Translations under genes and position numbers: made by a program
Assembly: GCA_028868895.1 (NCBI GenBank)
Contig: JAGWTP010000003.1
Location: forward strand, 7,392-71,391
Reading direction: 5' to 3'
Origin: Burkholderiales bacterium
Lineage (GTDB): Bacteria; Pseudomonadota; Gammaproteobacteria; Burkholderiales; Burkholderiaceae_C
DNA length: 64,000 bases
Notes under the pieces: generated by a model
What the model saw: the letters and a program-made list of their open reading frames with translations, nothing else
What the model was told of the DNA's origin: nothing
The model's database searches: none
Shown here: piece after piece, positions 1-60,121 of the stretch
Layout of the letters: every line of letters begins with the position of its first letter
Numbering within the stretch: position 1 is the stretch's first letter

Positions 1-1084
1 GCTGGATGCCGTGGCCCCAGTATTCGCCGGTCATCCAGAAAGGCGCGTCGTCGACCTCGGCGCCGGCATGCGCCGCCTTCCATGCCGCCAGTGCTTTCAA
101 GCCGGCAGCCTTCAGTGCGGTCCACGACGCCGGTTCCACGTTCTTGACGGTGTCGCAACGGAATCCGTCGATGCCGTAGTCACGCACCCATTGCGTCAAC
201 CAGCCGACGAGGTAATCGCGCACGGTGGCGTGGGGCAGTGCCTTCGCAGCGGTGTCGGGCTTGTGGCGAAGCAGCGGCGGCAGGCCGACGAACCGGGGCG
301 ACTCCGTCTTGAAGTCGGGCAGGTAGGCCAGTTGCCTGGTGTAGTCGTCGCTGCCGCCTTCGGTGTAGCCGCGCAGCCCGGCGCGGACCCAGTCCGGGCC
401 CCACCAGTTGAGCCAGGCCGGGTCGTTGTAGTCGATCCAGCTGTGGTAATCGGCCGGCGTCGCGCGCTCGTAGCCCTTCCACAGCACGCCGACCTTGCGG
501 TCGGTGACCGGCCCCACGTACTCCGCCAGGTCGGCGATGTCGGCGTATCCGGGGTGGTTCATCACGACGTCGAACAGCACGCGGATGCCGCGGCCGTGCG
601 CGGCACCGACGAACTCGCGCAGTTCGTCTTCGGTGCCCATGCTCCGGTCCAGCCGCGTGTAGTCGAGCGCGTAGTAGCCGTGGTAGGCGTAATGTTTGAA
701 TTGCTTGTTGCCACCCACGACCCAGCCGTGGATCTGCTCGTACGGTGCGGTGATCCAGATTGCGTTGACGCCGAGTTGGCTGAACCACCCCTGGCGCACC
801 TTGCGCGTCAGGCCGGCCAGATCGCCGCCGTGGAAGGTGGCGATGTCGTCGCGGGCATCGGGCTCGCGCCGGCGGCCGTAAGCATGGTCGTTGGCCGGGT
901 TGCCGTCGACGAAGCGGTCGGTGATGACGAAGTACACGATCGGGTTGTCGGCGAAGCTGCCGGGAACGTCTGCCGCACGCACCGCACCGGGCAGCGTGAC
1001 GAACGCGCCGGCCGCCACCAGCGTGCGCGCCCAGTGCGCGAGTCGGCGCATCAGCGCCGGCTCGATCCCGGGCACCGTGATCAT
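1..1084 (-). CDS. GH13 alpha-amylase/maltodextrin hydrolase (MalS-like), partial, runs off the left edge
   Basis: Not in the ORF track; hand-translated from the ATG at 1084, which overlaps the malG stop (ATGA). Contains [50 protein letters not shown] and [11 protein letters not shown], the GH13 conserved regions. Confidence 0.9.
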
Positions 1085-1971
1085 CCCTTGACGCCGCCGG
1101 CGGTCAGTCCGGAGACGATCCACTTCTGCGCCGCCAGGAACACCGCGGTGATGGGCAGGCCCGACAGCACCGCCGCGGCGGCGAAGTCACCCCACAGGTA
1201 CTTCTGTTCGTACAGGTAGTACTTGGAGCCCACCGCCAGCGTCAGGTGCGGCTCCTGGCGCAGCAGGACCGAGGCCACCGGGTATTCGATGATGCCGCCG
1301 ATGAAGGCGAGCACGAAGACGACCATCAGGATCGGCACCGCCATCGGCAGCAACACGTAGCGAAAGGCCTGGAAGTGGGTCGCGCCATCGACCTTCGCGC
1401 ATTCCTCGATCTCCACCGGGATGGTGTCGAAATAGCCGCGGATGGTCCAGATGTGGACGGCCACGCCACCCAGGTAAGCCAGGATCACGCCGGCATGGGT
1501 CTCGATGCCGAGCCAGGGGACGTAGTTGCCGATCGTCTCGAAGACCGCGTAGATCGCCACCAGCGCCAGCACCGCCGGGAACATCTGAAGCAGCAACATG
1601 CTGCTCAGGATGCCGGCCTTGAAGCGAAACCTCAGCCGCGCGAAGGCATAGGCGGCGGTGGTCGAGATCATGACGATGAGAAACGCCGAGATGCCGGCGA
1701 TCTTGACCGAGTTCCACAGCCACAGCAGAACCGGGAATGGCGGCAGCACGAGGCTGCCGTCGCTCGCCCGGTACGGGATGCCCAGCGCGAGCTTCCAGTG
1801 TTCGAGGCTGATGTGGTCGGGGATCAGCGAGCCGGTGGCGAAGTTGCCCGGACGCAGCGAGATCGAGATCACCGCCAGCAGCGGGAACAAGGTGATCGCG
1901 ATCAATGCCCACAGGAAGGCGTGTGCGACGAGCAGGCGCCAGCGGTGGCGGCGTCCGGTGACGATGGGCAT
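1081..1971 (-). CDS. malG: Maltose ABC transporter permease MalG
   Basis: Multi-TM protein with an EAA-like loop ([14 protein letters not shown]); ends GLTAGGVKG as MalG does; downstream of malF. Confidence 0.92.
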
Positions 1972-1975
1972 CGTG

Positions 1976-3553
<1,578 letters not shown>

Positions 3554-3644
3554 TCACTTCCTGCTGCGCCTGCGCGGCGCGCGCGTGCCGCGCTCGTGCC
3601 GCACCCCGCGCGCGCCGGTGCCGGCCCGCGCGCGTCGGCGGGTC

Positions 3645-4841
<1,197 letters not shown>

Positions 4842-4926
4842 GTCTTTGGTCTCCGTTTACTGTGGGTGGGTGAACTTGGGCGTCGATAAGCTCTGCGGGG
4901 TCGCGAGGCGCGCCCCGGGAATCGGC

Positions 4927-6045
<1,119 letters not shown>

Positions 6046-6135
6046 TGCGGGTGCCTCCACCGCGCTGGGAAGGCACGCGCGGGTTGTCTCGTTGTGGGAC
6101 GGCGGAGCTTCTCTTGGCTGCTCCGTCTTCGGAAA

Positions 6136-6164
6136 AATATACAGAGCCGACCGGTGAAGCGCAA
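6136..6164 (-). promoter_or_regulatory. Candidate sigma70 promoter for the mal operon
   Basis: Minus strand reads TTGCGC-N17-TATATT, about 90 nt upstream of malK. Confidence 0.4.
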
Positions 6165-6412
6165 CTGCTGCAAACCCAACACAAGCGCCTTCGACTCAAC
6201 GTCGAATCGCCGACGTGGATCGCGCATCAGACAGTGCCAAGCGAGTCGAACGGCGTTGATGGCCGGGTCGTACCGGCGGCCTTCAGCGGCAGGCTTTTGC
6301 GCGCGCCGGCCGCTGCGATGCGAAACCACTCGTTGGCCGAGCCGCGGGGCGGATTGGCTATGCTTCATGCCAGCGTTTCAACGTCATCAACTCACTCGAT
6401 TGGAGACACCCC

Positions 6413-7873
6413 ATGCTCAAGCTCAAAGACCCCAGCCTGTTCCGCCAGCAGGCCCATGTCGCCGGTGAATGGATCGACGCCGACGACGGCACGACCGTGG
6501 CCGTCACCAACCCGGCCACCGGCGAGACGCTGGGCAGCGTGCCGATGTGCGGCGCGGCCGAGACGGCGCGCGCCATCGCCGCGGCCGACGTGGCGCAGCG
6601 GCGGTGGCGCGACGTGTCGGCCAAGGAGCGCGCCGCGGTGCTGCGCCGGCTCAACGACCTGATGCTGGCCAACGCCGACGACCTCGCGCTGATCATGACC
6701 AGCGAGCAGGGCAAGCCGCTCGCCGAGGCGAAGGGCGAGATCGGCTACGCCGCGTCGTTCATCGAGTGGTTCGCCGACGAGGCGCGCCGCATCTACGGCG
6801 ACACGATTCCCGCGCCGCTGGGCGACCGCCGCATCCTGGCGATCAAGCAGCCGGTGGGCACGACCGCGGCGATCACGCCGTGGAACTTTCCCACCGCGAT
6901 GCTGACGCGCAAGGCCGGCCCGGCGCTGGCGGCGGGCTGCTCGATGGTCGTCAAGCCGGCGACGCAGACACCGTACTCGGCGCTCGCGTTCGCTGAACTC
7001 GCGGTGCGCGCCGGCGTGCCCAAGGGGCTGCTGTCGGTGCTGACCGGTTCGGCCAGCCGGATCGGCGGCGAGATGACGCGCAACCCGCTGGTGCGCAAGC
7101 TCAGCTTCACCGGCTCGACCGAGGTCGGCCGGCTGCTGATGCGCCAGAGTGCCGACACGGTCAAGAAGCTCTCGCTCGAGCTCGGCGGCAACGCGCCGTT
7201 CATCGTCTTCGACGATGCCGATCTCGACGCCGCGGTCGAGGGCGCGATGATCTCGAAGTACCGCAACACCGGCCAGACCTGCGTCTGCGCCAACCGCATC
7301 TACGTGCAGCGCGGCGTGCTCGCGGCCTTCACCAACAAGCTGGTCGCCAAGGTCAAGGCGCTCAAGGTCGGCTCGGGCGTGGAGCCGGGCGTCACGCAGG
7401 GGCCACTGATCGACGCCAAGGCGGTGGCGAAGATCGAGGAGCACATCGCCGACGCCCGCGCCAAGGGCGCCGAGGTGCTGACCGGCGGCAAGCGCCACGC
7501 GCTCGGCGGCCTGTTCTTCGAGCCGACGGTGATCGGCGGCGCGACCGCCGAGATGCTGTTCGCGCGCGAGGAAACCTTCGGCCCGCTGGCGCCGATCTTC
7601 GCGTTCGACACCGAGGCCGAAGTCATCGAGCGCGCCAACGACACCGAGTTCGGCCTGGCCGCGTACTTCTACAGCCGCGACATCGGCCGCGTGATGCGGG
7701 TGGCCGAGAAGCTCGAGTCGGGCATGGTCGGCGTCAACACCGGCCTGATCTCGACCGCCGAGGCGCCGTTCGGCGGCGTCAAGCAGTCGGGCCTGGGCCG
7801 CGAAGGCTCGAAGTACGGGCTCGACGACTTCCTCGAATTGAAGTACGTCTGCCTGGCGGGGCTGGACAAGTAG
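6413..7873 (+). CDS. gabD: NAD(P)-dependent succinate-semialdehyde dehydrogenase
   Basis: ITPWNFP, FTGSTEVG, LELGGNAPF, catalytic GQTCVC, EETFGP; N-terminus MLKLKDPSLFRQQA typical of GabD. Confidence 0.9.
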   Translation: MLKLKDPSLFRQQAHVAGEWIDADDGTTVAVTNPATGETLGSVPMCGAAETARAIAAADVAQRRWRDVSAKERAAVLRRLNDLMLANADDLALIMTSEQGKPLAEAKGEIGYAASFIEWFADEARRIYGDTIPAPLGDRRILAIKQPVGTTAAITPWNFPTAMLTRKAGPALAAGCSMVVKPATQTPYSALAFAELAVRAGVPKGLLSVLTGSASRIGGEMTRNPLVRKLSFTGSTEVGRLLMRQSADTVKKLSLELGGNAPFIVFDDADLDAAVEGAMISKYRNTGQTCVCANRIYVQRGVLAAFTNKLVAKVKALKVGSGVEPGVTQGPLIDAKAVAKIEEHIADARAKGAEVLTGGKRHALGGLFFEPTVIGGATAEMLFAREETFGPLAPIFAFDTEAEVIERANDTEFGLAAYFYSRDIGRVMRVAEKLESGMVGVNTGLISTAEAPFGGVKQSGLGREGSKYGLDDFLELKYVCLAGLDK

Positions 7874-50090: not shown

Positions 50091-50167
50091 CGGCGGTGGG
50101 CGGGACCGGCTCGTGCCGGAGCGCCACGACGGGGCGCCTCGTGGCCCGAGGGAGGCAGAATTCTCCC

Positions 50168-52357
50168 ATGGCCCCCGCACCCCAGAGCGTTGCCGCCGCC
50201 GTGGTCGGCAAGGACAAGTCCGGGCCGCAGCGCGCGCTCGAGAAGCTCGGCCTGGTGCGCCCGATCGACTTCGCGCTGCACCTGCCGCTGCGCTACGAGG
50301 ACGAGACCCGCATCGTGCCGATCGCCAGTCTGGGCGACGGCGCCCAGGCGCAGGTCGAGGGGGTGGTCAGCGAGTGCCAGGTCCAGCAGCGCGGCCGGCG
50401 CCAGCTCGTTGTGCGCATCCACGACGGCAGCGACGACCTGGTGCTGCGCTTCCTGCACTTCTACCCCTCGCAGCAGAAGGCGCTCGCGGTCGGCACCCGC
50501 GTGCGGGTGCGTGGCGAGGCGCGCGGCGGCTTCTTCGGCCTGGAGATGGTCCACCCGAGCTTCAAGGTCGTCACGCCGGCCACGCCACTCGCCACCGCCC
50601 TCACGCCGGTGTACCCGACCAGCGCCCAGTTGCCGCAGGCCTACCTGCGCAAGGCCGTGGCGGCGAACCTGGCGCGTGCCGATCTCGCCGAACTGCTGCC
50701 GCCCGAGCTGGTGCCGCGCGGCCTGGCGAGCCTGCGCGAGGCGCTGACCTTTCTGCACCAGCCGGCGCCCAGCGTCGGGCTGGCCACCCTCGAAGACCGC
50801 AGCCACCCGGCGTGGCAGCGGCTCAAGTTCGAGGAGCTGCTGGCGCAGCAGTTGTCGCAGCTGCAGGCCAAGCGCGAGCGCGAGCGGCAGCGCGCGCCGC
50901 GCCTGGCCGTGCGGGCCGGCGGCTTGCAGGAGCGGCTGCTCGGCGCGCTGCCGTTCACGCTCACCGCGGCGCAGCGGCGCGTCGTCGACGAGATCGCCGG
51001 CGATCTGCAGCGCGCCGCGCGCGGCACGGCGGGCGGCCTGGCCACGACCGTGCCGATGCACCGCCTGCTGCAAGGCGACGTGGGTTCGGGCAAGACCGTG
51101 GTCGCCGCGCTCGCTGCGGCGATCGCGATCGACAACGGCTGGCAGTGCGCGCTGATGGCGCCGACCGAGATCCTCGCCGAGCAGCACCTGCGCAAGCTCG
51201 TCGGCTGGCTCGCGCCGCTGGGCATCACGGTGGCGTGGCTCACCGGCAGCCGCAAGGGCAAGGGCCGCACGCGCATGCTCGAGCAGGTCGCCTCGGGCGA
51301 GGCTGCGCTGGTGGTGGGCACGCACGCGGTGATCCAGGAGCAGGTGCGGTTCGCGAAGCTGGGGCTGGCGATCGTCGACGAGCAGCATCGCTTCGGCGTG
51401 CAGCAGCGGCTGGCCCTGCGCGCCAAGCTCGGCGCGCGGTTCGACCCCAGCGCCGAGCCGGACGCGCGCCCCGATGTCGGTGCCAAGCCCGGCGCACGCG
51501 CCGATGACGACGCGACACCGGCAGCCTGCGGCATCGAGCCGCACACGCTGATGATGAGCGCCACGCCGATCCCGCGCACGCTGGCGATGACGCTGTTCGC
51601 CGACCTCGACGTCAGCACCATCGACGCGCTGCCGCCCGGGCGCACGCCGGTCGTGACCAAGCTGTTCGCCGACGCGAAGCGCGAGGCCGTGATCGCACGC
51701 ATCCGCGACGACGTGGCGCAGGGCCGGCAGGTCTACTGGGTCTGTCCGCTGATCGAGGAGTCGGAGACACTCGACCTGCGCAACGCCACCGCGACCCACC
51801 AGCAGCTCAGCGCGGCGCTGCCGGGCCGCACGGTCGGCCTGTTGCACGGCCGGATGGTGGCCGCCGAGAAGGCGGCGGTGATGGCGGCGTTCACCGCCGG
51901 GCAGCTGAGCGTGCTGGTGTCGACCACGGTGATCGAGGTCGGCGTGGACGTGCCCAATGCGTCGCTGATGGTGATCGAGCACGCCGAGCGCTTCGGCCTG
52001 TCGCAGCTGCACCAGCTGCGCGGGCGCGTCGGCCGCGGCAGCGCCGCCAGCGTGTGCGTGCTGATGTACGGCACGCCGTTGTCGCAGACCGCCAAGCAGC
52101 GCCTTAAGGCGATGATGGAGACCGGCGACGGCTTCGAGATCGCGCGCCGCGACCTGGAGATCCGCGGCCCCGGCGAGTTTCTCGGGGCGCGCCAGTCGGG
52201 CGCGCCGCTGCTGCGCTTTGCCGATCCCGCCACCGACGAAGCGCTGGTGCATGCCGCGCGCGCCGCCGCCGCGACACTGCTCGACCAGCGGCCGCAGATC
52301 GCGTTGGCGCATGTGGTGCGGTGGCTCGGCACCCGCTCGGACTACCTGAAAGCCTGA
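50168..52357 (+). CDS. recG: ATP-dependent DNA helicase RecG
   Basis: [49 protein letters not shown]. Confidence 0.95.
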
Positions 52358-52379
52358 TCGCCACCCGCACGGTCCGGGT

Positions 52380-53357
52380 TCAGCGAACGATCGGCGGCGG
52401 CAGCGGCGGCGGCGGTGGTGGTGGTGGTGGCGGCAGCGGCAGCGGCAGGCGCGGCATGCACATGCGCCGCGCGATGCCGGCGCTCTCGCTGAAGCTGCCG
52501 GCGCACTGTTCGCGGCTCGACGGATAGATCTCGCCGTGCGCACAGCACCAGCCGGTCTGCGCCGGCGGTGGCGGTGGTGCGGGCCGGCACATCGACTCGG
52601 CGATGCTGCGGTTGGTCGAGAACACGTTGCCGCCGCAGCGGTTCGACCAGCTCGGCACGGCGCGGCCATCGACGCAGCACCAGCCTTGCGACGGTGCCTC
52701 GGCAACGCTGTCGGCCCAGGCTGCGGCGTCGCGCAGCTCGCGCGCGTCGGCGGGCATCACGCGCGGCGCCGTGCGGTTGGGATAGGCGGACACCAGGGCC
52801 TCGAGGGCGTGCAGACGCACCGGCGCCCAGCCGGCCTGGCGCGGGCGACACGCGACGACGCCTTCGGCCACCGCGATGGCCACGCTGCGGTCGGGGCGCA
52901 CCTCGAACAGGAAGCGGGTGCCCTCGACGCCGGCGACGATGTTTTCGCTCGAGGTTTCGAAGAGGCCGCGCAGGTTCGCGAACACCCGCCCGAAGAAGAC
53001 CTCGAGCGAGCCCAGCCGCACGCGTGTGTTCTCGGCCAGCGTGGTGGTGCCGGTGGCCGCGCCCGTGTTGCCGCCGCTGAAGCGGATCACCGCGGCCGAC
53101 TGCGGCCCGGTCTGCACGACGTCGCCACGCTGCAGCAGCATGCCGCGCGTCGCGCGCAGTTCCTGGCCGTCGCGCCAGACCCGCAGGCCGACCTCGGCGG
53201 GCTCGGCCTGCTGCCAGCGCACCTCGGTGCCGGCAACCTCGCGCGCCACTTGCGCGAGCCGGATGGTCGGCTCTTGCGGGCCGGTCTCGCAGGCCGCCAG
53301 CACGAGCGTGATCGTGAGCGCGAGGCCGCGCAGCCACCGAAGTTCGAACGGGTTCAT
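52380..53357 (-). CDS. FecR-domain lipoprotein with two Cys-rich GWCC repeats and a polyproline tail (325 aa)
   Basis: Lipobox LAAC (Cys23); FecR-like GDVVQTG...AGVEGTRF..V.EG; its ATG overlaps the stop of the upstream TIR gene. Confidence 0.75.
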   Translation of the reverse strand: MNPFELRWLRGLALTITLVLAACETGPQEPTIRLAQVAREVAGTEVRWQQAEPAEVGLRVWRDGQELRATRGMLLQRGDVVQTGPQSAAVIRFSGGNTGAATGTTTLAENTRVRLGSLEVFFGRVFANLRGLFETSSENIVAGVEGTRFLFEVRPDRSVAIAVAEGVVACRPRQAGWAPVRLHALEALVSAYPNRTAPRVMPADARELRDAAAWADSVAEAPSQGWCCVDGRAVPSWSNRCGGNVFSTNRSIAESMCRPAPPPPPAQTGWCCAHGEIYPSSREQCAGSFSESAGIARRMCMPRLPLPLPPPPPPPPPPLPPPIVR

Positions 53358-55129
53358 GTCGGGATCCTCCGGAATGCCTGAAAGCGCCTGGCCATCACCT
53401 GCACCGCGCGCAGCGCGGCGGCGGTCAGGAACAACGCCGCGAGGTCGGTGACGACGTCGAGCAGCACCGCGCGCCGGGCCAGCCACACCGCCAGCGCGAG
53501 CCACGCGAGCGCCAGCGCCAGCAGCGCCACGCGGCGCTGCCAGGCGGGACGCTGAAACCCGCCGATGGCCACGGCGCCACCCAGCAAACCGGCCGCCAGC
53601 GTGCTCAGCAGCTGCCGGTCGGCGGTGAGACGCCGCGGCACCCGGCCGCCGGCCAGCGTGCTGATCGCGTCGGCCTGCAACTCCACACCGTAGACGGTGC
53701 GCTGGGCGTAGCCGTCTCGCACCACGTGGACGTCGGCGTTGGCGCCGGGGCGGTCGAGCGCCGTCAGGCCGACCAGCACGATGCGGCCCGCGAAGCGTGC
53801 GTCGGGGGTCTGCAACGGATCGAGCGCCTGCGCGTAGCTGACGCTGCGGGTGGCACTGCGCCAATGGCCGGCCGGCGCGACCCGCAGCAGCAGCATCGGC
53901 CGCACGTCACCGGCGCGCGTGACGCGGCAACCGGGCAGATCCAGCCGCTGGCGCTCGAGGCTGCTGTAGCGCAGCGGCGGGTCGCGCGCCGGGCCGTCGA
54001 AGCGCAACTGGCGGCGTGCGAGATCGGCGTCGAGCAGGCGCTCGCCGACCACCGCGGACAGCGCCAGCGACGGGGTGTCGGCGCTGACCAGTTCGCCGCC
54101 GGCGCCGGCCGCCGGCCGCAGCACCGCCAGCGGCGCTGACCACAGCAGGCCGCCGCCGCGATCGGTCAGGCACAGCGAGCCCCAGGTCGCCGCGTGCTGC
54201 AGCGGCTCGACCAGCGCCGGCGCGCCGGCGATGAGCTGGCGCACGCCGAACACGACGCGCATCGGCCGGGCCGCGGCACGCGCGCGCCGGGCGGCGTCGG
54301 CCAGCACCGGGTCGGCGTCGGTCGGGGTCTCGAAGTACAGGTCGAACACGACCGCGGCCGCGCCGGCCCGCCCGGCGCGGTCGATCAGCCGGGCGTGATC
54401 GAGGCGCCATTCGGCGGCGTGGTCCGGCGCGAAGGTTCGGCCCAGGCGCTGTTCGCTGGCGGCGTCGATGGCCACCAGCAGCACCGGCTCGCCGGTGTTG
54501 GGCCCGCCCGCGGCCAGCAGCAGGCGCTGCGCCTGGGTGTCGAGATTGAGCAGGTCGAACAGCCCGGTCCAGTTCGCCGCCAGCAGCGCGGCGACGATCA
54601 GCGCCGTGACCACCGGGCCGCCCCGGGCAATGCCTGCCAGGCGCGCCCACCGCCGCGGGTCGGGCGCGGGCTCGCCGAGCAACTGCCGCACCAGCTCGTT
54701 GAGGTCGATGTCGAAGCTGGCGCCATGGATTTCGGGCATGTTGAGCACCGCCAGCGCCCGCAGCTCGGTGGGCAGCGCGTCGGCCGCCGGGGCGGTCGCG
54801 CCCTCGACGCGCACCGGCACGATGCGCTTGGCGTGTTCGAGCGCCGTGAGCAGCTCCAGGCGCACCGGGTCGTCGGCCTGCTCCAGGCGGCGCCCGCGCT
54901 CGTTGCGTGCGTCCAGCCAGTGCGGGCCGATCACCACCAGCACCACGTCGCTGGCGGCGATGCGCTCGCGCACCAGGCGCACGAAATCGTCGCCGTAGGG
55001 GATGTCGGAGGTGTCGAAGAACACCCGGTCGGCGCCGAAGCGCGCGCGCAGGGCCTCGCACAGGCCGCGCGCACTGGTTTCGGCGTCGCTGCGCCGGTAG
55101 CTGATGAAGAGCCGCGAGGGTTGGAACAT
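53354..55129 (-). CDS. TIR domain - TM - CHASE2 - 3TM membrane protein (591 aa)
   Basis: TIR motifs FISYRRSD, VFFD..IPYGDDF, VRLE92L; CHASE2 motifs LVAID, AVVFDLYF, GRIVLVG, YGVELQA. Confidence 0.85.
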   Translation of the reverse strand: MFQPSRLFISYRRSDAETSARGLCEALRARFGADRVFFDTSDIPYGDDFVRLVRERIAASDVVLVVIGPHWLDARNERGRRLEQADDPVRLELLTALEHAKRIVPVRVEGATAPAADALPTELRALAVLNMPEIHGASFDIDLNELVRQLLGEPAPDPRRWARLAGIARGGPVVTALIVAALLAANWTGLFDLLNLDTQAQRLLLAAGGPNTGEPVLLVAIDAASEQRLGRTFAPDHAAEWRLDHARLIDRAGRAGAAAVVFDLYFETPTDADPVLADAARRARAAARPMRVVFGVRQLIAGAPALVEPLQHAATWGSLCLTDRGGGLLWSAPLAVLRPAAGAGGELVSADTPSLALSAVVGERLLDADLARRQLRFDGPARDPPLRYSSLERQRLDLPGCRVTRAGDVRPMLLLRVAPAGHWRSATRSVSYAQALDPLQTPDARFAGRIVLVGLTALDRPGANADVHVVRDGYAQRTVYGVELQADAISTLAGGRVPRRLTADRQLLSTLAAGLLGGAVAIGGFQRPAWQRRVALLALALAWLALAVWLARRAVLLDVVTDLAALFLTAAALRAVQVMARRFQAFRRIPT

Positions 55130-55254
55130 GGCAGCGCCCGTCGTTCCACCTTAGCGGCGCGTGCCGGCGCGCACAAGCCGACGGCTTAGGGGGCGCGGGG
55201 GTCGTTGCGCAGGAACGCTGGGCTATTCTTCGAACCCTCACCGAGAGCCGACCC

Positions 55255-59428: not shown

Positions 59429-59674
59429 ATGCGAACCACCATCAACCTGGCCGAGGACGCCGCCCTTGCAGCACGCAACCTGGCGCAGCGCGAGCGAGTC
59501 TCGCTCGGCGAAGCGATTTCGGAACTCATCCGCCGCGGCGCGAGCGCAGGCATGGGCGAAGTCCGGGCCCGTGCGGTCCAACCCATGCGGGGACGCTTTG
59601 CGCTGCTGCCGGCGCGCGACGAGGTCATCACGCCCCAGCATGTGCGAGCGCTGATGGAACGCGAAGGCATCTGA
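59429..59674 (+). CDS. vapB: Ribbon-helix-helix antitoxin (VapB-like)
   Basis: MRTTINL...SLGEAISELIRRG, directly upstream of the PIN toxin. Confidence 0.8.
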   Translation: MRTTINLAEDAALAARNLAQRERVSLGEAISELIRRGASAGMGEVRARAVQPMRGRFALLPARDEVITPQHVRALMEREGI

Positions 59675-59689
59675 GCCCACGGCCCGGCC

Positions 59690-60121
59690 ATGCGCGCGCT
59701 GCTCGACGTCAATGTGTGGGTGGCGCTGTTCGACGACGCGCACCAGTTTTCGGATCGGGCCAATTCGTTCATCGAGACGCGTGGCGTCAAGATCGCCACC
59801 TGTCCGCTGGTGGAAAACGGCGTGATCCGGGTCCTGAGTCTGCCGAGCTATGGCCGCCGTGGTGGCTTGCCGATACACGTCGTTCGCGAGCGGCTGCGGG
59901 AAGCCTGCAGCGCGCTGGACCACGAATTCTGGCCCGACGACATTTCGTTGCGTGACGATGCGCTCGTGAACTTCAATCGTGTGCAGGGCCACAACCAGAT
60001 CACCGATCTCTACCTGCTGGCCCTCGCGGTGCATCGAGGCGGCTGCCTGACAACGTTCGACCAGGCCATCGCGCTGGCCAGCGTGCATGGGGCCACGGTG
60101 CGGCATCTGAAGCAGCTTTGA
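59690..60121 (+). CDS. vapC: PIN-domain ribonuclease toxin (VapC)
   Basis: ALLDVNVWVAL, CPLVENG, QITDLYLLALA, TTFD. Confidence 0.88.
   Translation: MRALLDVNVWVALFDDAHQFSDRANSFIETRGVKIATCPLVENGVIRVLSLPSYGRRGGLPIHVVRERLREACSALDHEFWPDDISLRDDALVNFNRVQGHNQITDLYLLALAVHRGGCLTTFDQAIALASVHGATVRHLKQL

Follow-up and report, generated by a model that had tools for sequence, protein, structure and literature searches.

The window, a 64,000-nucleotide stretch of a Burkholderiales bacterium genome, carries on its minus strand a two-gene module that encodes a TIR-CHASE2 membrane receptor and a FecR-like lipoprotein. We favor, with moderate confidence, the reading that the two proteins constitute a CHASE2/FecR envelope sensor with a self-contained TIR NADase as its output. 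The receptor combines a TIR domain most closely related to SARM1, a predicted periplasmic CHASE2 domain, and four transmembrane (TM) segments. Its gene is adjoined by the partner gene in every locus compared.

Domain organization and topology of the receptor

The receptor open reading frame begins with ATG and encodes 591 residues plus a stop codon. The gene and its parts are as follows.

53354..55129, minus strand: TIR-CHASE2 membrane receptor gene (open reading frame, Pfam TIR_2 and CHASE2, homologs, AF2 pLDDT 87)
54680..55117, minus strand: predicted cytoplasmic SARM1-like TIR domain, residues 5–150 (Foldseek, family HMM)
54854..54856, minus strand: codon of E92, predicted to be the catalytic residue (alignment with SARM1 E642)
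54554..54622, minus strand: TM1, residues about 170–192 (hydropathy 1.9–2.0; Arg-rich N-side)
53615..54547, minus strand: predicted periplasmic CHASE2 domain, residues 195–505 (Pfam)
54170–54172 and 53927–53929, minus strand: conserved CHASE2 cysteines C320 and C401 (near-invariant in the family)
53411..53611, minus strand: TM2–TM4 bundle, residues 507–573 (hydropathy and AF2 helices)
53357..53410, minus strand: predicted cytoplasmic tail of 18 residues, Arg-rich and free of any output domain (sequence RAVQVMARRFQAFRRIPT, five Arg)

The original prediction, made from the sequence, described a TIR domain followed by one TM segment, CHASE2, three further TM segments, and a tail of about 18 residues. 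This order is borne out by Pfam, hydropathy, and the AF2 model. TIR_2 is matched over residues 8–114 with 52.0 bits (cut-off 28), and CHASE2 (PF05226) over residues 176–512 with 81.7 bits (cut-off 26.3). The AF2 model of the full receptor contains the same TM helices as the hydropathy profile. The TM1 region is part of a long helix (158–188), and helices 503–523, 529–551, and 559–587 cover the TM2–TM4 region, where hydropathy places the segments at about 507–527, 533–551, and 554–573. Residues 586–591 of the tail are modeled with a pLDDT below 50. As had also been pointed out, the usual C-terminal output is missing: no cyclase, kinase, GGDEF/EAL, or STK domain follows TM4, only the 18-residue tail. 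Family members measure about 550–640 residues, so the missing output does not reflect a truncation.

The receptor is predicted to adopt an N-in/C-in topology, with the TIR domain in the cytoplasm, as originally proposed, and CHASE2 in the periplasm. The assignment rests on charges, a cysteine pair, and published homologs. Positive charges border the cytoplasmic sides of the TM segments in the sequence and hydropathy profile. C320 and C401 are the sole two cysteines of the ectodomain and are near-invariant across 142 relatives, which fits a periplasmic disulfide. The same 1+3 TM arrangement has been published for metacaspase-CHASE2 (PMC3501461) and CHASE2 kinases (PMC5192318).

Modeled alone, the CHASE2 domain reaches a pLDDT of 91.5 and a pTM of 0.92. 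A Foldseek search of the PDB returned no significant fold neighbor (best E 0.02, TM 0.19) and the domain had no sequence match in the PDB, so the fold offers no hint of a ligand. To our knowledge, the CHASE2 fold has neither an assigned ligand nor a solved structure.

The TIR domain is of SARM1 type

The TIR domain is the best-conserved region of the receptor, with a mean pairwise identity of 56%. Judged by predicted fold and sequence profile, it is of SARM1 type, SARM1 being by far the nearest solved structure. The top PDB fold matches are all SARM1 TIR (Foldseek E 1e-7, TM 0.84 on target). The family HMM matches SARM1 among PDB sequences with an E-value of 1.6e-12, as compared with 0.009 for the next TIR.

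The motifs FISYRRSD, VFFD, and DDPVRLE92LL, named in the original prediction, are present in the receptor. Residues F8, S10, Y11, R12, R13, D15, F37, D39, D87, V89, and E92 are invariant in an alignment of 31 sequences. The segment DDPVRLE aligns with KDWVHKE of SARM1 and places E92 at the position of E642; this glutamate is unchanged in all 142 full-length relatives, which share 28–93% identity, and the expectation that the TIR domain keeps its catalytic glutamate holds throughout the family. E642A is the most severe SARM1 NADase mutant, and mutation of Y568, D594, G601, or E642 lowers NADase activity (PMC8266388). The equivalent receptor residues, Y11, D39, G46, and E92, are invariant or nearly so in the 142 relatives. 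The position of SARM1 W638 is a proline in the receptor (position 88) and P, Y, F, W, or V across the family, while that of H685 is a glycine and is not conserved in the family. Because of these two positions, the catalytic competence of the receptor's subclade is not certain.

The same two positions, along with a TLR-like layout, would suit a noncatalytic scaffold TIR that engages only in homotypic or heterotypic contacts, for instance to recruit a cytoplasmic partner, as TLR TIR domains do. Such a role is quite improbable in view of the catalytic glutamate in 142 of 142 members, alongside the Y, D, and G residues on which SARM1 activity depends. In addition, no second TIR protein that could serve as a pairing mate was found in the host genome.

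Highly unlikely, too, is a strict Thoeris-like anti-phage system, in which a ThsB-type TIR sensor would make a product that switches on a separate effector. The top PADLOC match is ThsB1 (E 6.7e-9) and the top NCBIfam match is Thoeris type III ThcB4 (E 1.3e-10), and both cover residues 6–75 only. However, the ThcB4 match scores 40.7 bits against a curated cut-off of 220, and SARM1 is much nearer than any solved bacterial TIR. An adjacent effector gene was found in none of 21 loci. Neither of the Thoeris-type effector domains STALD and SIR2_2 was found in the host genome, the STALD search having been run without a positive control. The links to Thoeris, TIR-STING, and TIR-SAVED drawn in the original prediction thus prove weak, and membership in Thoeris, TIR-SAVED, or retron-TIR systems was rejected, as the matches are partial and far below the cut-offs and no effector accompanies the receptor.

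A FecR-like lipoprotein is the obligatory partner

The partner gene lies directly downstream of the receptor gene and contains the following features.

52380..53357, minus strand: partner gene, FecR-like lipoprotein of 325 residues (lipobox LVLAAC, overlap with the receptor gene)
52854..53123, minus strand: FecR-like domain, residues 79–168 (PF04773 alignment over profile positions 1–96 of 97)
52383..52685, minus strand: C terminus, composed of two 33-residue four-Cys "GWCC" repeats and a polyproline tail (sequence)
52584–52685 and 52455–52553, minus strand: the two GWCC repeats (sequence)
52383–52451, minus strand: the polyproline tail (sequence)

The partner's ATG overlaps the receptor's TGA (ATGA), in agreement with the partner gene that had been anticipated. 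A partner HMM matches the open reading frame adjoining the receptor in 21 of 21 loci, while the other neighbors differ between loci. The FecR domain scores 19.3 bits in the host genome, which is below the Pfam cut-off, whereas the partners of orthologous receptors reach 34.9 and 24.1 bits; the region also shows weak similarity to LipL45. GWCC repeats occur in the partners of loci L002 and L004 but not in those of L001 and L005, indicating that the C terminus of the partner is variable.

Among metagenomic proteins, relatives are also found fused as TIR-CHASE2-FecR and TIR-CHASE2-FecR-TPR-PASTA, although these gene calls may themselves be frameshift artifacts. Both fusion types possess an additional hydrophobic segment, which would return FecR to the periplasm.

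The module is an accessory insert with a widespread family

The two genes form a 2.9-kb accessory insert between recG and oxyR, delimited as follows.

52358..55254, no strand: accessory insert, from the recG stop to the oxyR-like start (comparison with same-genus genomes)
55130..55254, no strand: divergent intergenic region of 125 bp shared with the OxyR-like gene, presumed to hold the promoters (gene map)

The pair is patchily distributed, being present in two of 35 same-genus genomes. The cassette sits between recG and oxyR in G000 and G023; at the empty site of congeners G002 and G030, about 25–40 bp separate the recG stop from the oxyR start. In another congener, the same slot is occupied by an Mrr-type nuclease and a WD40-caspase. 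No target-site duplication is evident at the insert borders in the host genome. The 125-bp intergenic region is partly conserved with G023, and a promoter scan of it returned no sigma-70 consensus match.

Across the family, most copies are embedded among housekeeping genes, and the flanks do not recur over 19 loci; a defense-island setting is therefore generally unsupported. By synteny, ATP synthase genes recur near the receptor in one related subclade only. Two plus-strand open reading frames of 975 and 588 residues were dismissed as conserved neighbors, being probably shadow frames of atpD/atpC on the opposite strand. A search of the IMG/VR viral contigs yielded no full-length copy. One locus, L004, does have a SLATT protein and phage tail genes next to it.

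The TIR-CHASE2 architecture is widespread, not rare. At least 141 full-length nonredundant members were retrieved, and 70 full-length receptor homologs share 34–93% identity. Cultured carriers include Thauera sinica CGMCC 1.15731, Thauera sp. 2A1, and Azohydromonas lata NBRC 102462, which makes the hypothesis directly testable. A related CHASE2 chassis, P0221, has a CHAT protease where the receptor has its TIR domain, and the P0221 CHASE2 domain matches the family profile with an E-value of 6e-70. Metacaspase-CHASE2 of Trichodesmium (PMC3501461) sets a precedent for a death-type effector at the N terminus of a CHASE2 chassis, and caspase-CHASE2 is mentioned elsewhere (PMC8195603). The original statement that no characterized example is known stands for TIR-CHASE2 itself, of which no description was found in the literature searched; it needs to be tempered by the metacaspase-CHASE2 precedent and by the size of the family.

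Proposed mechanism

The module may be a horizontally mobile two-gene unit for envelope sensing. The receptor would cross the inner membrane four times, with CHASE2 in the periplasm and the SARM1-type TIR domain in the cytoplasm. The co-translated FecR-like lipoprotein would act as a co-sensor that takes up or passes on an outer-envelope cue, and would bind or let go of CHASE2. A resulting change in conformation or clustering would bring TIR domains together, whereupon active sites would form and cleave NAD+, as happens in enzymatic TIRs such as SARM1. No further TIR was found in the genome, nor was STALD or SIR2_2, so the effector is most likely the TIR domain itself, and its activity would deplete NAD+ and lead to growth arrest or death. 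Attack on the envelope by a phage or competitor, or severe envelope damage, may provide the cue. The module probably serves in conflict or cell death, and a role of the receptor in defense or abortive infection is plausible.

Enzymatic TIRs also produce signaling nucleotides, as in Thoeris and plant TIRs. The receptor TIR could act under regulation as an ADP-ribosyl cyclase or transferase and answer a periplasmic cue with a nonlethal, cADPR-type signal, to be read by a receptor from another locus of the genome, in parallel with the cAMP and c-di-GMP outputs of ordinary CHASE2 receptors. This is a reasonable alternative, because other CHASE2/FecR modules control ordinary second messengers through cyclase, kinase, or GGDEF outputs, and we consider it rather unlikely to be the right one. 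The second CHASE2 protein of the host genome is an adenylate cyclase, and the housekeeping surroundings of the cassette in most genomes would also suit such signaling. On the other hand, no conserved third gene is present to read the signal, the two Thoeris-type effector domains were not detected in the genome, and the distribution within the genus is that of an accessory element. The exchange of TIR for CHAT protease on the same chassis agrees better with an effector role than with messenger synthesis.

The favored TIR NADase sensor can be extended to a bolder proposal, which is tentative. The receptor may be an outside-in death receptor, in which FecR lipoprotein and CHASE2 sense an envelope attack and, from across the inner membrane, trigger the SARM1-type NADase earlier than any cytoplasmic sensor could respond, on a chassis that is modular with TIR, CHAT, and caspase outputs. 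The trigger could come from a phage during adsorption or injection, from damaged peptidoglycan, or from a competitor's effector. If true, this would define a class of bacterial surface-sensing immune or cell-death receptors and a functional parallel of animal TLR/SARM1 logic. The bacterial TIR systems known to us detect infection inside the cell, and known CHASE2 receptors give ordinary second messengers or phosphorylation. CHASE2/FecR wired straight to a SARM1-type NADase would mean transmembrane control of a potentially lethal enzyme. The module would also offer a tractable two-gene model for TIR switching by receptor clustering, CHASE2 sensing, and the relay of envelope signals by FecR partners.

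Comparison with known systems

Several CHASE2 receptors have FecR-type or outer-membrane partners. In Burkholderia, a LysM-FecR protein accompanies the "BiofilmReg" CHASE2 histidine kinase (PMC5192318), and in Campylobacterota a FecR outer-membrane protein goes with CHASE2 adenylate cyclases (PMC9239204). The Sinorhizobium meliloti CHASE2 cyclases CyaD1, CyaD2, and CyaK respond via the outer-membrane partner NsrA (PMC13001267). FecR-domain proteins repeatedly adjoin CHASE2 kinases and cyclases (PMC5192318, PMC9239204). TIR-CHASE2 shares with these systems the 1+3 TM arrangement around CHASE2, the adjacent FecR-domain envelope protein, and a presumed outside-in logic, in which a partner in the outer envelope signals to a receptor in the inner membrane. 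However, their cyclase or kinase is C-terminal and cytoplasmic, whereas the N-terminal TIR is the sole cytoplasmic domain of TIR-CHASE2 apart from the short tail. Where the others have LysM, TPR, or a barrel, its partner has GWCC repeats rich in cysteine, followed by a polyproline tail.

The metacaspase/CHAT-CHASE2 proteins are built in the same order, with a death-type effector in the cytoplasm at the N terminus, then one TM segment, CHASE2, three TM segments, and a short tail. Their effector is a protease instead, and the function is predicted there too.

SARM1 and Caenorhabditis elegans TIR-1 share the FISYRR, F-x-D, and D-x-V-x-x-E motifs, the BB-loop glycine, and the catalytic glutamate with the receptor TIR. 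The receptor lacks their ARM and SAM domains, and control would be exerted by a membrane ectodomain rather than by NMN/NAD+ sensing. Thoeris, TIR-STING, TIR-SAVED, and SPARTA likewise contain bacterial enzymatic TIRs that are presumably activated by assembly, and the receptor gives weak matches to ThsB and SAVED-TIR profiles that fall short of the curated cut-off where a model has one (NCBIfam). Unlike these defense systems, TIR-CHASE2 is a receptor with a predicted periplasmic sensor and has no cytoplasmic sensor or partner effector.

The original description of the receptor as Toll-like in style applies to its layout. Animal Toll-like and IL-1 receptors have the same order of ectodomain, membrane, and cytoplasmic TIR, and they likewise require a partner of the co-receptor kind, which in TIR-CHASE2 would be the FecR-like lipoprotein. 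The description does not extend to the components: the animal receptors cross the membrane once and carry an LRR or Ig ectodomain, with the TIR of Toll-like receptors at the C terminus, whereas TIR-CHASE2 has four TM segments, a CHASE2 domain, and an N-terminal TIR that is predicted to be enzymatic and SARM1-type rather than a TLR-type scaffold. Nothing indicates that the whole receptor shares descent with Toll-like or IL-1 receptors, and the likeness lies in the arrangement of an external sensor, a membrane, and a TIR domain.

Receptor architecture and membrane orientation

53354-55129, minus strand: receptor ORF, 591 aa, ATG start

The receptor is composed of a TIR_2 domain at aa 8-114 (52.0 bits against a Pfam-A cut-off of 28) and a CHASE2 domain at aa 176-512 (81.7 bits against 26.3). 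Hydropathy predicts four transmembrane segments (TMs), TM1 near aa 170-192 and the others near 507-527, 533-551, and 554-573; a tail, RAVQVMARRFQAFRRIPT, with five Arg residues comes after them. The ORF, both domains, the 1+3 TM arrangement, and the short tail described in the original prediction are thus borne out. An AlphaFold2 model based on 31 homologues (mean pLDDT 87) contains helices that agree with the hydropathy TMs, and a long helix connects the TIR to TM1.

The receptor is most likely oriented N-in/C-in, so that CHASE2 is in the periplasm and the TIR in the cytoplasm. Arg-rich stretches are located in the segment preceding TM1 and in the tail. The ectodomain contains exactly two cysteines, C320 (retained in 138/142 relatives) and C401 (135/142), as expected of a periplasmic disulfide, supporting the placement of CHASE2 outside. 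The orientation is also supported by the published 1+3 TM layouts of CHASE2 kinases (PMC5192318) and of a metacaspase-CHASE2 protein (PMC3501461), both with CHASE2 outside. The CHASE2 domain modeled alone (pLDDT 91.5, pTM 0.92) has no significant fold neighbor in the PDB (best Foldseek E 0.02, TM 0.19), and the family profile matches no PDB sequence outside the TIR. With no solved relative found, the fold gives no clue to the ligand.

The TIR domain resembles that of SARM1

The best PDB matches of the whole-receptor model are all TIR domains of SARM1, an animal NAD-cleaving TIR protein (top E 9.6e-8, TM 0.84 on the target); the TM value for AbTir and MyD88 is about 0.67. Against all PDB sequences, the family profile matches SARM1 with an E of 1.6e-12 and the second-best TIR with 0.009. 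In the profile alignment, FISY11RR, VFFD39, and G46 of the receptor fall on FISY568RR, VFID594, and G601 of SARM1, and DDPVRLE92 on KDWVHKE642. Mutation of Y568, D594, G601, or E642 lowers the NADase activity of SARM1, E642A being the most severe (PMC8266388).

Among 142 full-length relatives (28-93% identical to the receptor), E92, Y11, R12, F37, W71, R81, and D87 are invariant, and D39 (141/142) and G46 (140/142) nearly so. Within the receptor, conservation is highest in the TIR, where pairwise identity averages 56%; CHASE2 averages 50% and the TM regions 35-38%. However, the counterpart of SARM1 W638 is Pro in the receptor and P, Y, F, W, or V across the family, and that of H685 is Gly in the receptor. 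A TIR that serves as a scaffold only, which the altered W638 and H685 positions would favor but the E642 position kept in every relative speaks against, is unlikely.

PADLOC and NCBIfam yield only partial matches, to ThsB1, SAVED-TIR, and ThcB4, covering aa 6-75; the ThcB4 match (NCBIfam, 40.7 bits) lies far under the curated cut-off of 220. The receptor's ties to Thoeris, TIR-STING, and TIR-SAVED, systems named in the original prediction, are weak, and strict membership in Thoeris is improbable.

Family size and related architectures

A word-indexed search retrieved 70 proteins with TIR and CHASE2 (573-617 aa, 34-93% identity to the window protein), whose named sources are Burkholderiaceae, Rubrivivax, or Piscinibacter. 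A profile search, exhaustive over 1.84 billion representatives, gave about 100 clusters at 50% identity that match over full length among the best 150 listed. The pooled searches yield at least 141 full-length non-redundant sequences. GTDB species genomes contain about 20 full-length receptor loci in Burkholderiales, Rhodocyclales, and other Gammaproteobacteria, including the cultured Thauera sinica CGMCC 1.15731, Thauera sp. 2A1, and Azohydromonas lata NBRC 102462. In one MAG (L023, 5857-7737), the gene is broken by an in-frame stop near residue 290, which means that it is a pseudogene or that the assembly is wrong there.

Protein P0221 has a CHASE2 chassis (TM1, CHASE2, and three TMs) near the receptor family (E 6e-70) and a CHAT protease where the TIR would be. 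The nearest TIR-only relatives are fusions to SIR2_2, STAND-TPR, MORN, or FGE-sulfatase modules. Many proteins (the P0173, P0176, P0187, P0210, and P0212 group) have either two or three SARM1-like TIRs in tandem or such a TIR fused to FGE-sulfatase, TPR, or large unknown regions of 1400-1500 aa.

A FecR-like lipoprotein accompanies the receptor

52380-53357, minus strand: partner ORF, 325 aa, downstream of the receptor
52383-52685, minus strand: C-terminal region of the partner

The partner start codon shares bases with the receptor stop codon in an ATGA overlap. The protein carries a lipoprotein signal (lipobox LVLAAC) and contains a FecR-like domain (PF04773) that scores 19.3 bits, under the cut-off of 24; orthologous partners reach 34.9 and 24.1 bits. 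Its C-terminal region comprises two four-Cys 'GWCC' repeats of 33 aa each, with a Pro-rich linker between them, and then a polyproline tail. The repeats, which match no Pfam family, are present in the orthologs at L002 and L004 and absent at L001 and L005.

A partner HMM matched an adjacent same-strand ORF in all 21 loci with a full-length receptor. The ORF is usually downstream of the receptor gene, at a distance of about 1 kb in L021, but lies upstream of it in L005, the most divergent locus. No other gene family was found to recur across these loci, and the neighbors in other genomes are mostly unrelated housekeeping genes. FecR-type partners have been described beside a Burkholderia CHASE2 histidine kinase (LysM-FecR; PMC5192318) and Campylobacterota CHASE2 adenylate cyclases (PMC9239204), and in S. 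meliloti the outer-membrane protein NsrA mediates the response of CHASE2 cyclases to a plant protein (PMC13001267).

In two metagenomic proteins, receptor and partner are fused, as TIR-CHASE2-FecR (P0102) and TIR-CHASE2-FecR-TPR-PASTAx3 (P0214). Past the TM bundle of CHASE2, each has an additional hydrophobic segment that would bring FecR back into the periplasm, a topologically coherent layout; being metagenome gene calls, the fusions could be artefacts. LysM and PASTA are peptidoglycan binders, and their recurrence on FecR-type partners is at most a hint that the state of the cell wall could be one of the cues.

Two loci depart from the housekeeping setting. A Peptidase_C14 (caspase) gene lies immediately upstream of TIR-CHASE2, in divergent orientation, in a betaproteobacterial MAG (L013, 4884-5852, minus strand). 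In L004 (10682-11647, minus strand, and 1-7400), the pair sits between phage tail-like genes (Peptidase_S74, DUF6950, DUF5675) and a SLATT membrane protein (SLATT_1/SLATT_3/DUF4231). A search of IMG/VR found no full-length receptor copy.

The cassette occupies a variable chromosomal slot

50096-52357, plus strand: recG, bordering the cassette
52358-55254: variable slot of the genus at the recG-oxyR junction, seen also in L103, L104, L105, and L107
55255-56196, plus strand: OxyR-like LysR gene, the other border

Among NCBIfam models, OxyR fits the LysR gene best (243.6 bits; cut-off 329); beyond it lie genes for a Dps-like ferritin, DJ-1/PfpI, RF3, and a PIN toxin. The PIN-domain protein (59690-60121, plus strand, 33.7 bits) is preceded by a small ORF without a Pfam match, together a probable VapBC-type toxin-antitoxin pair (59430-60121, plus strand) 4 kb from the cassette.

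The cassette is accessory cargo in this slot, because only two of 35 same-genus genomes carry a full-length receptor gene, two others have an empty site, and two more have different contents. The carriers are the window's genome and G023, whose receptor (78% identity) is at the same chromosomal site. At the empty site, in G002 and G030, about 25-40 bp separate the recG stop from the oxyR start on one strand. Upstream of oxyR, G032 contains a Mrr_cat endonuclease and a 1162-aa WD40-caspase protein, and G004 a histidine kinase and unknown ORFs. The gap at the junction in G029 is ~680 bp.

At the right junction in G023 (L090), upstream of oxyR, the cassette border has two copies of the first ~24-30 bp of oxyR (ATGACCCTGACCGAACTTCGCTAC...), spaced ~150-190 bp apart; the window has a single copy. 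The duplication may be a recombination or insertion scar.

Proposed mechanism

On the model of SARM1 and of CHASE2 cyclases and kinases, the lipoprotein and CHASE2 would form a periplasmic sensing pair. An envelope change would alter how the two touch and how receptors pack or cluster, and the N-terminal TIRs would assemble active NADase sites as SARM1 TIRs do. The ensuing drop in NAD+ may cause growth arrest or death.

In the main rival, the TIR would produce a nucleotide that acts as a non-lethal signal, with its reader encoded elsewhere in the genome. Searches of the window's genome found no second TIR, no SIR2_2, and, without a positive control, no STALD. The only other CHASE2 protein there is an ordinary CHASE2-adenylate/guanylate cyclase (L007, contig C6, 1420-3699, plus strand, 189 bits), preceded by a PP2C phosphatase and a 291-aa ORF without a Pfam match. 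NAD+ loss with arrest or death is favored because a conserved reader gene is absent, a protease can substitute for the TIR on the same chassis, the nearest TIR relatives show conflict-type architectures, and the cassette is patchy and insert-like; the signaling alternative is credited with a distinctly smaller, though appreciable, probability.

Comparison with known systems

The original prediction knew of no characterised TIR-CHASE2 protein, and a full-text literature search, with most subscription journals outside its coverage, likewise found no description; provisionally, the architecture is undescribed. The closest published statements concern a metacaspase fused to CHASE2 (PMC3501461) and a caspase-CHASE2 fusion. 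The TIR-CHASE2 wiring is surprising, easily tested, and present in other genomes too, and its biological role is putative. The protein can be described in two equivalent ways, as a new output on a CHASE2/FecR receptor or as a new periplasmic sensor for a SARM1-type TIR.
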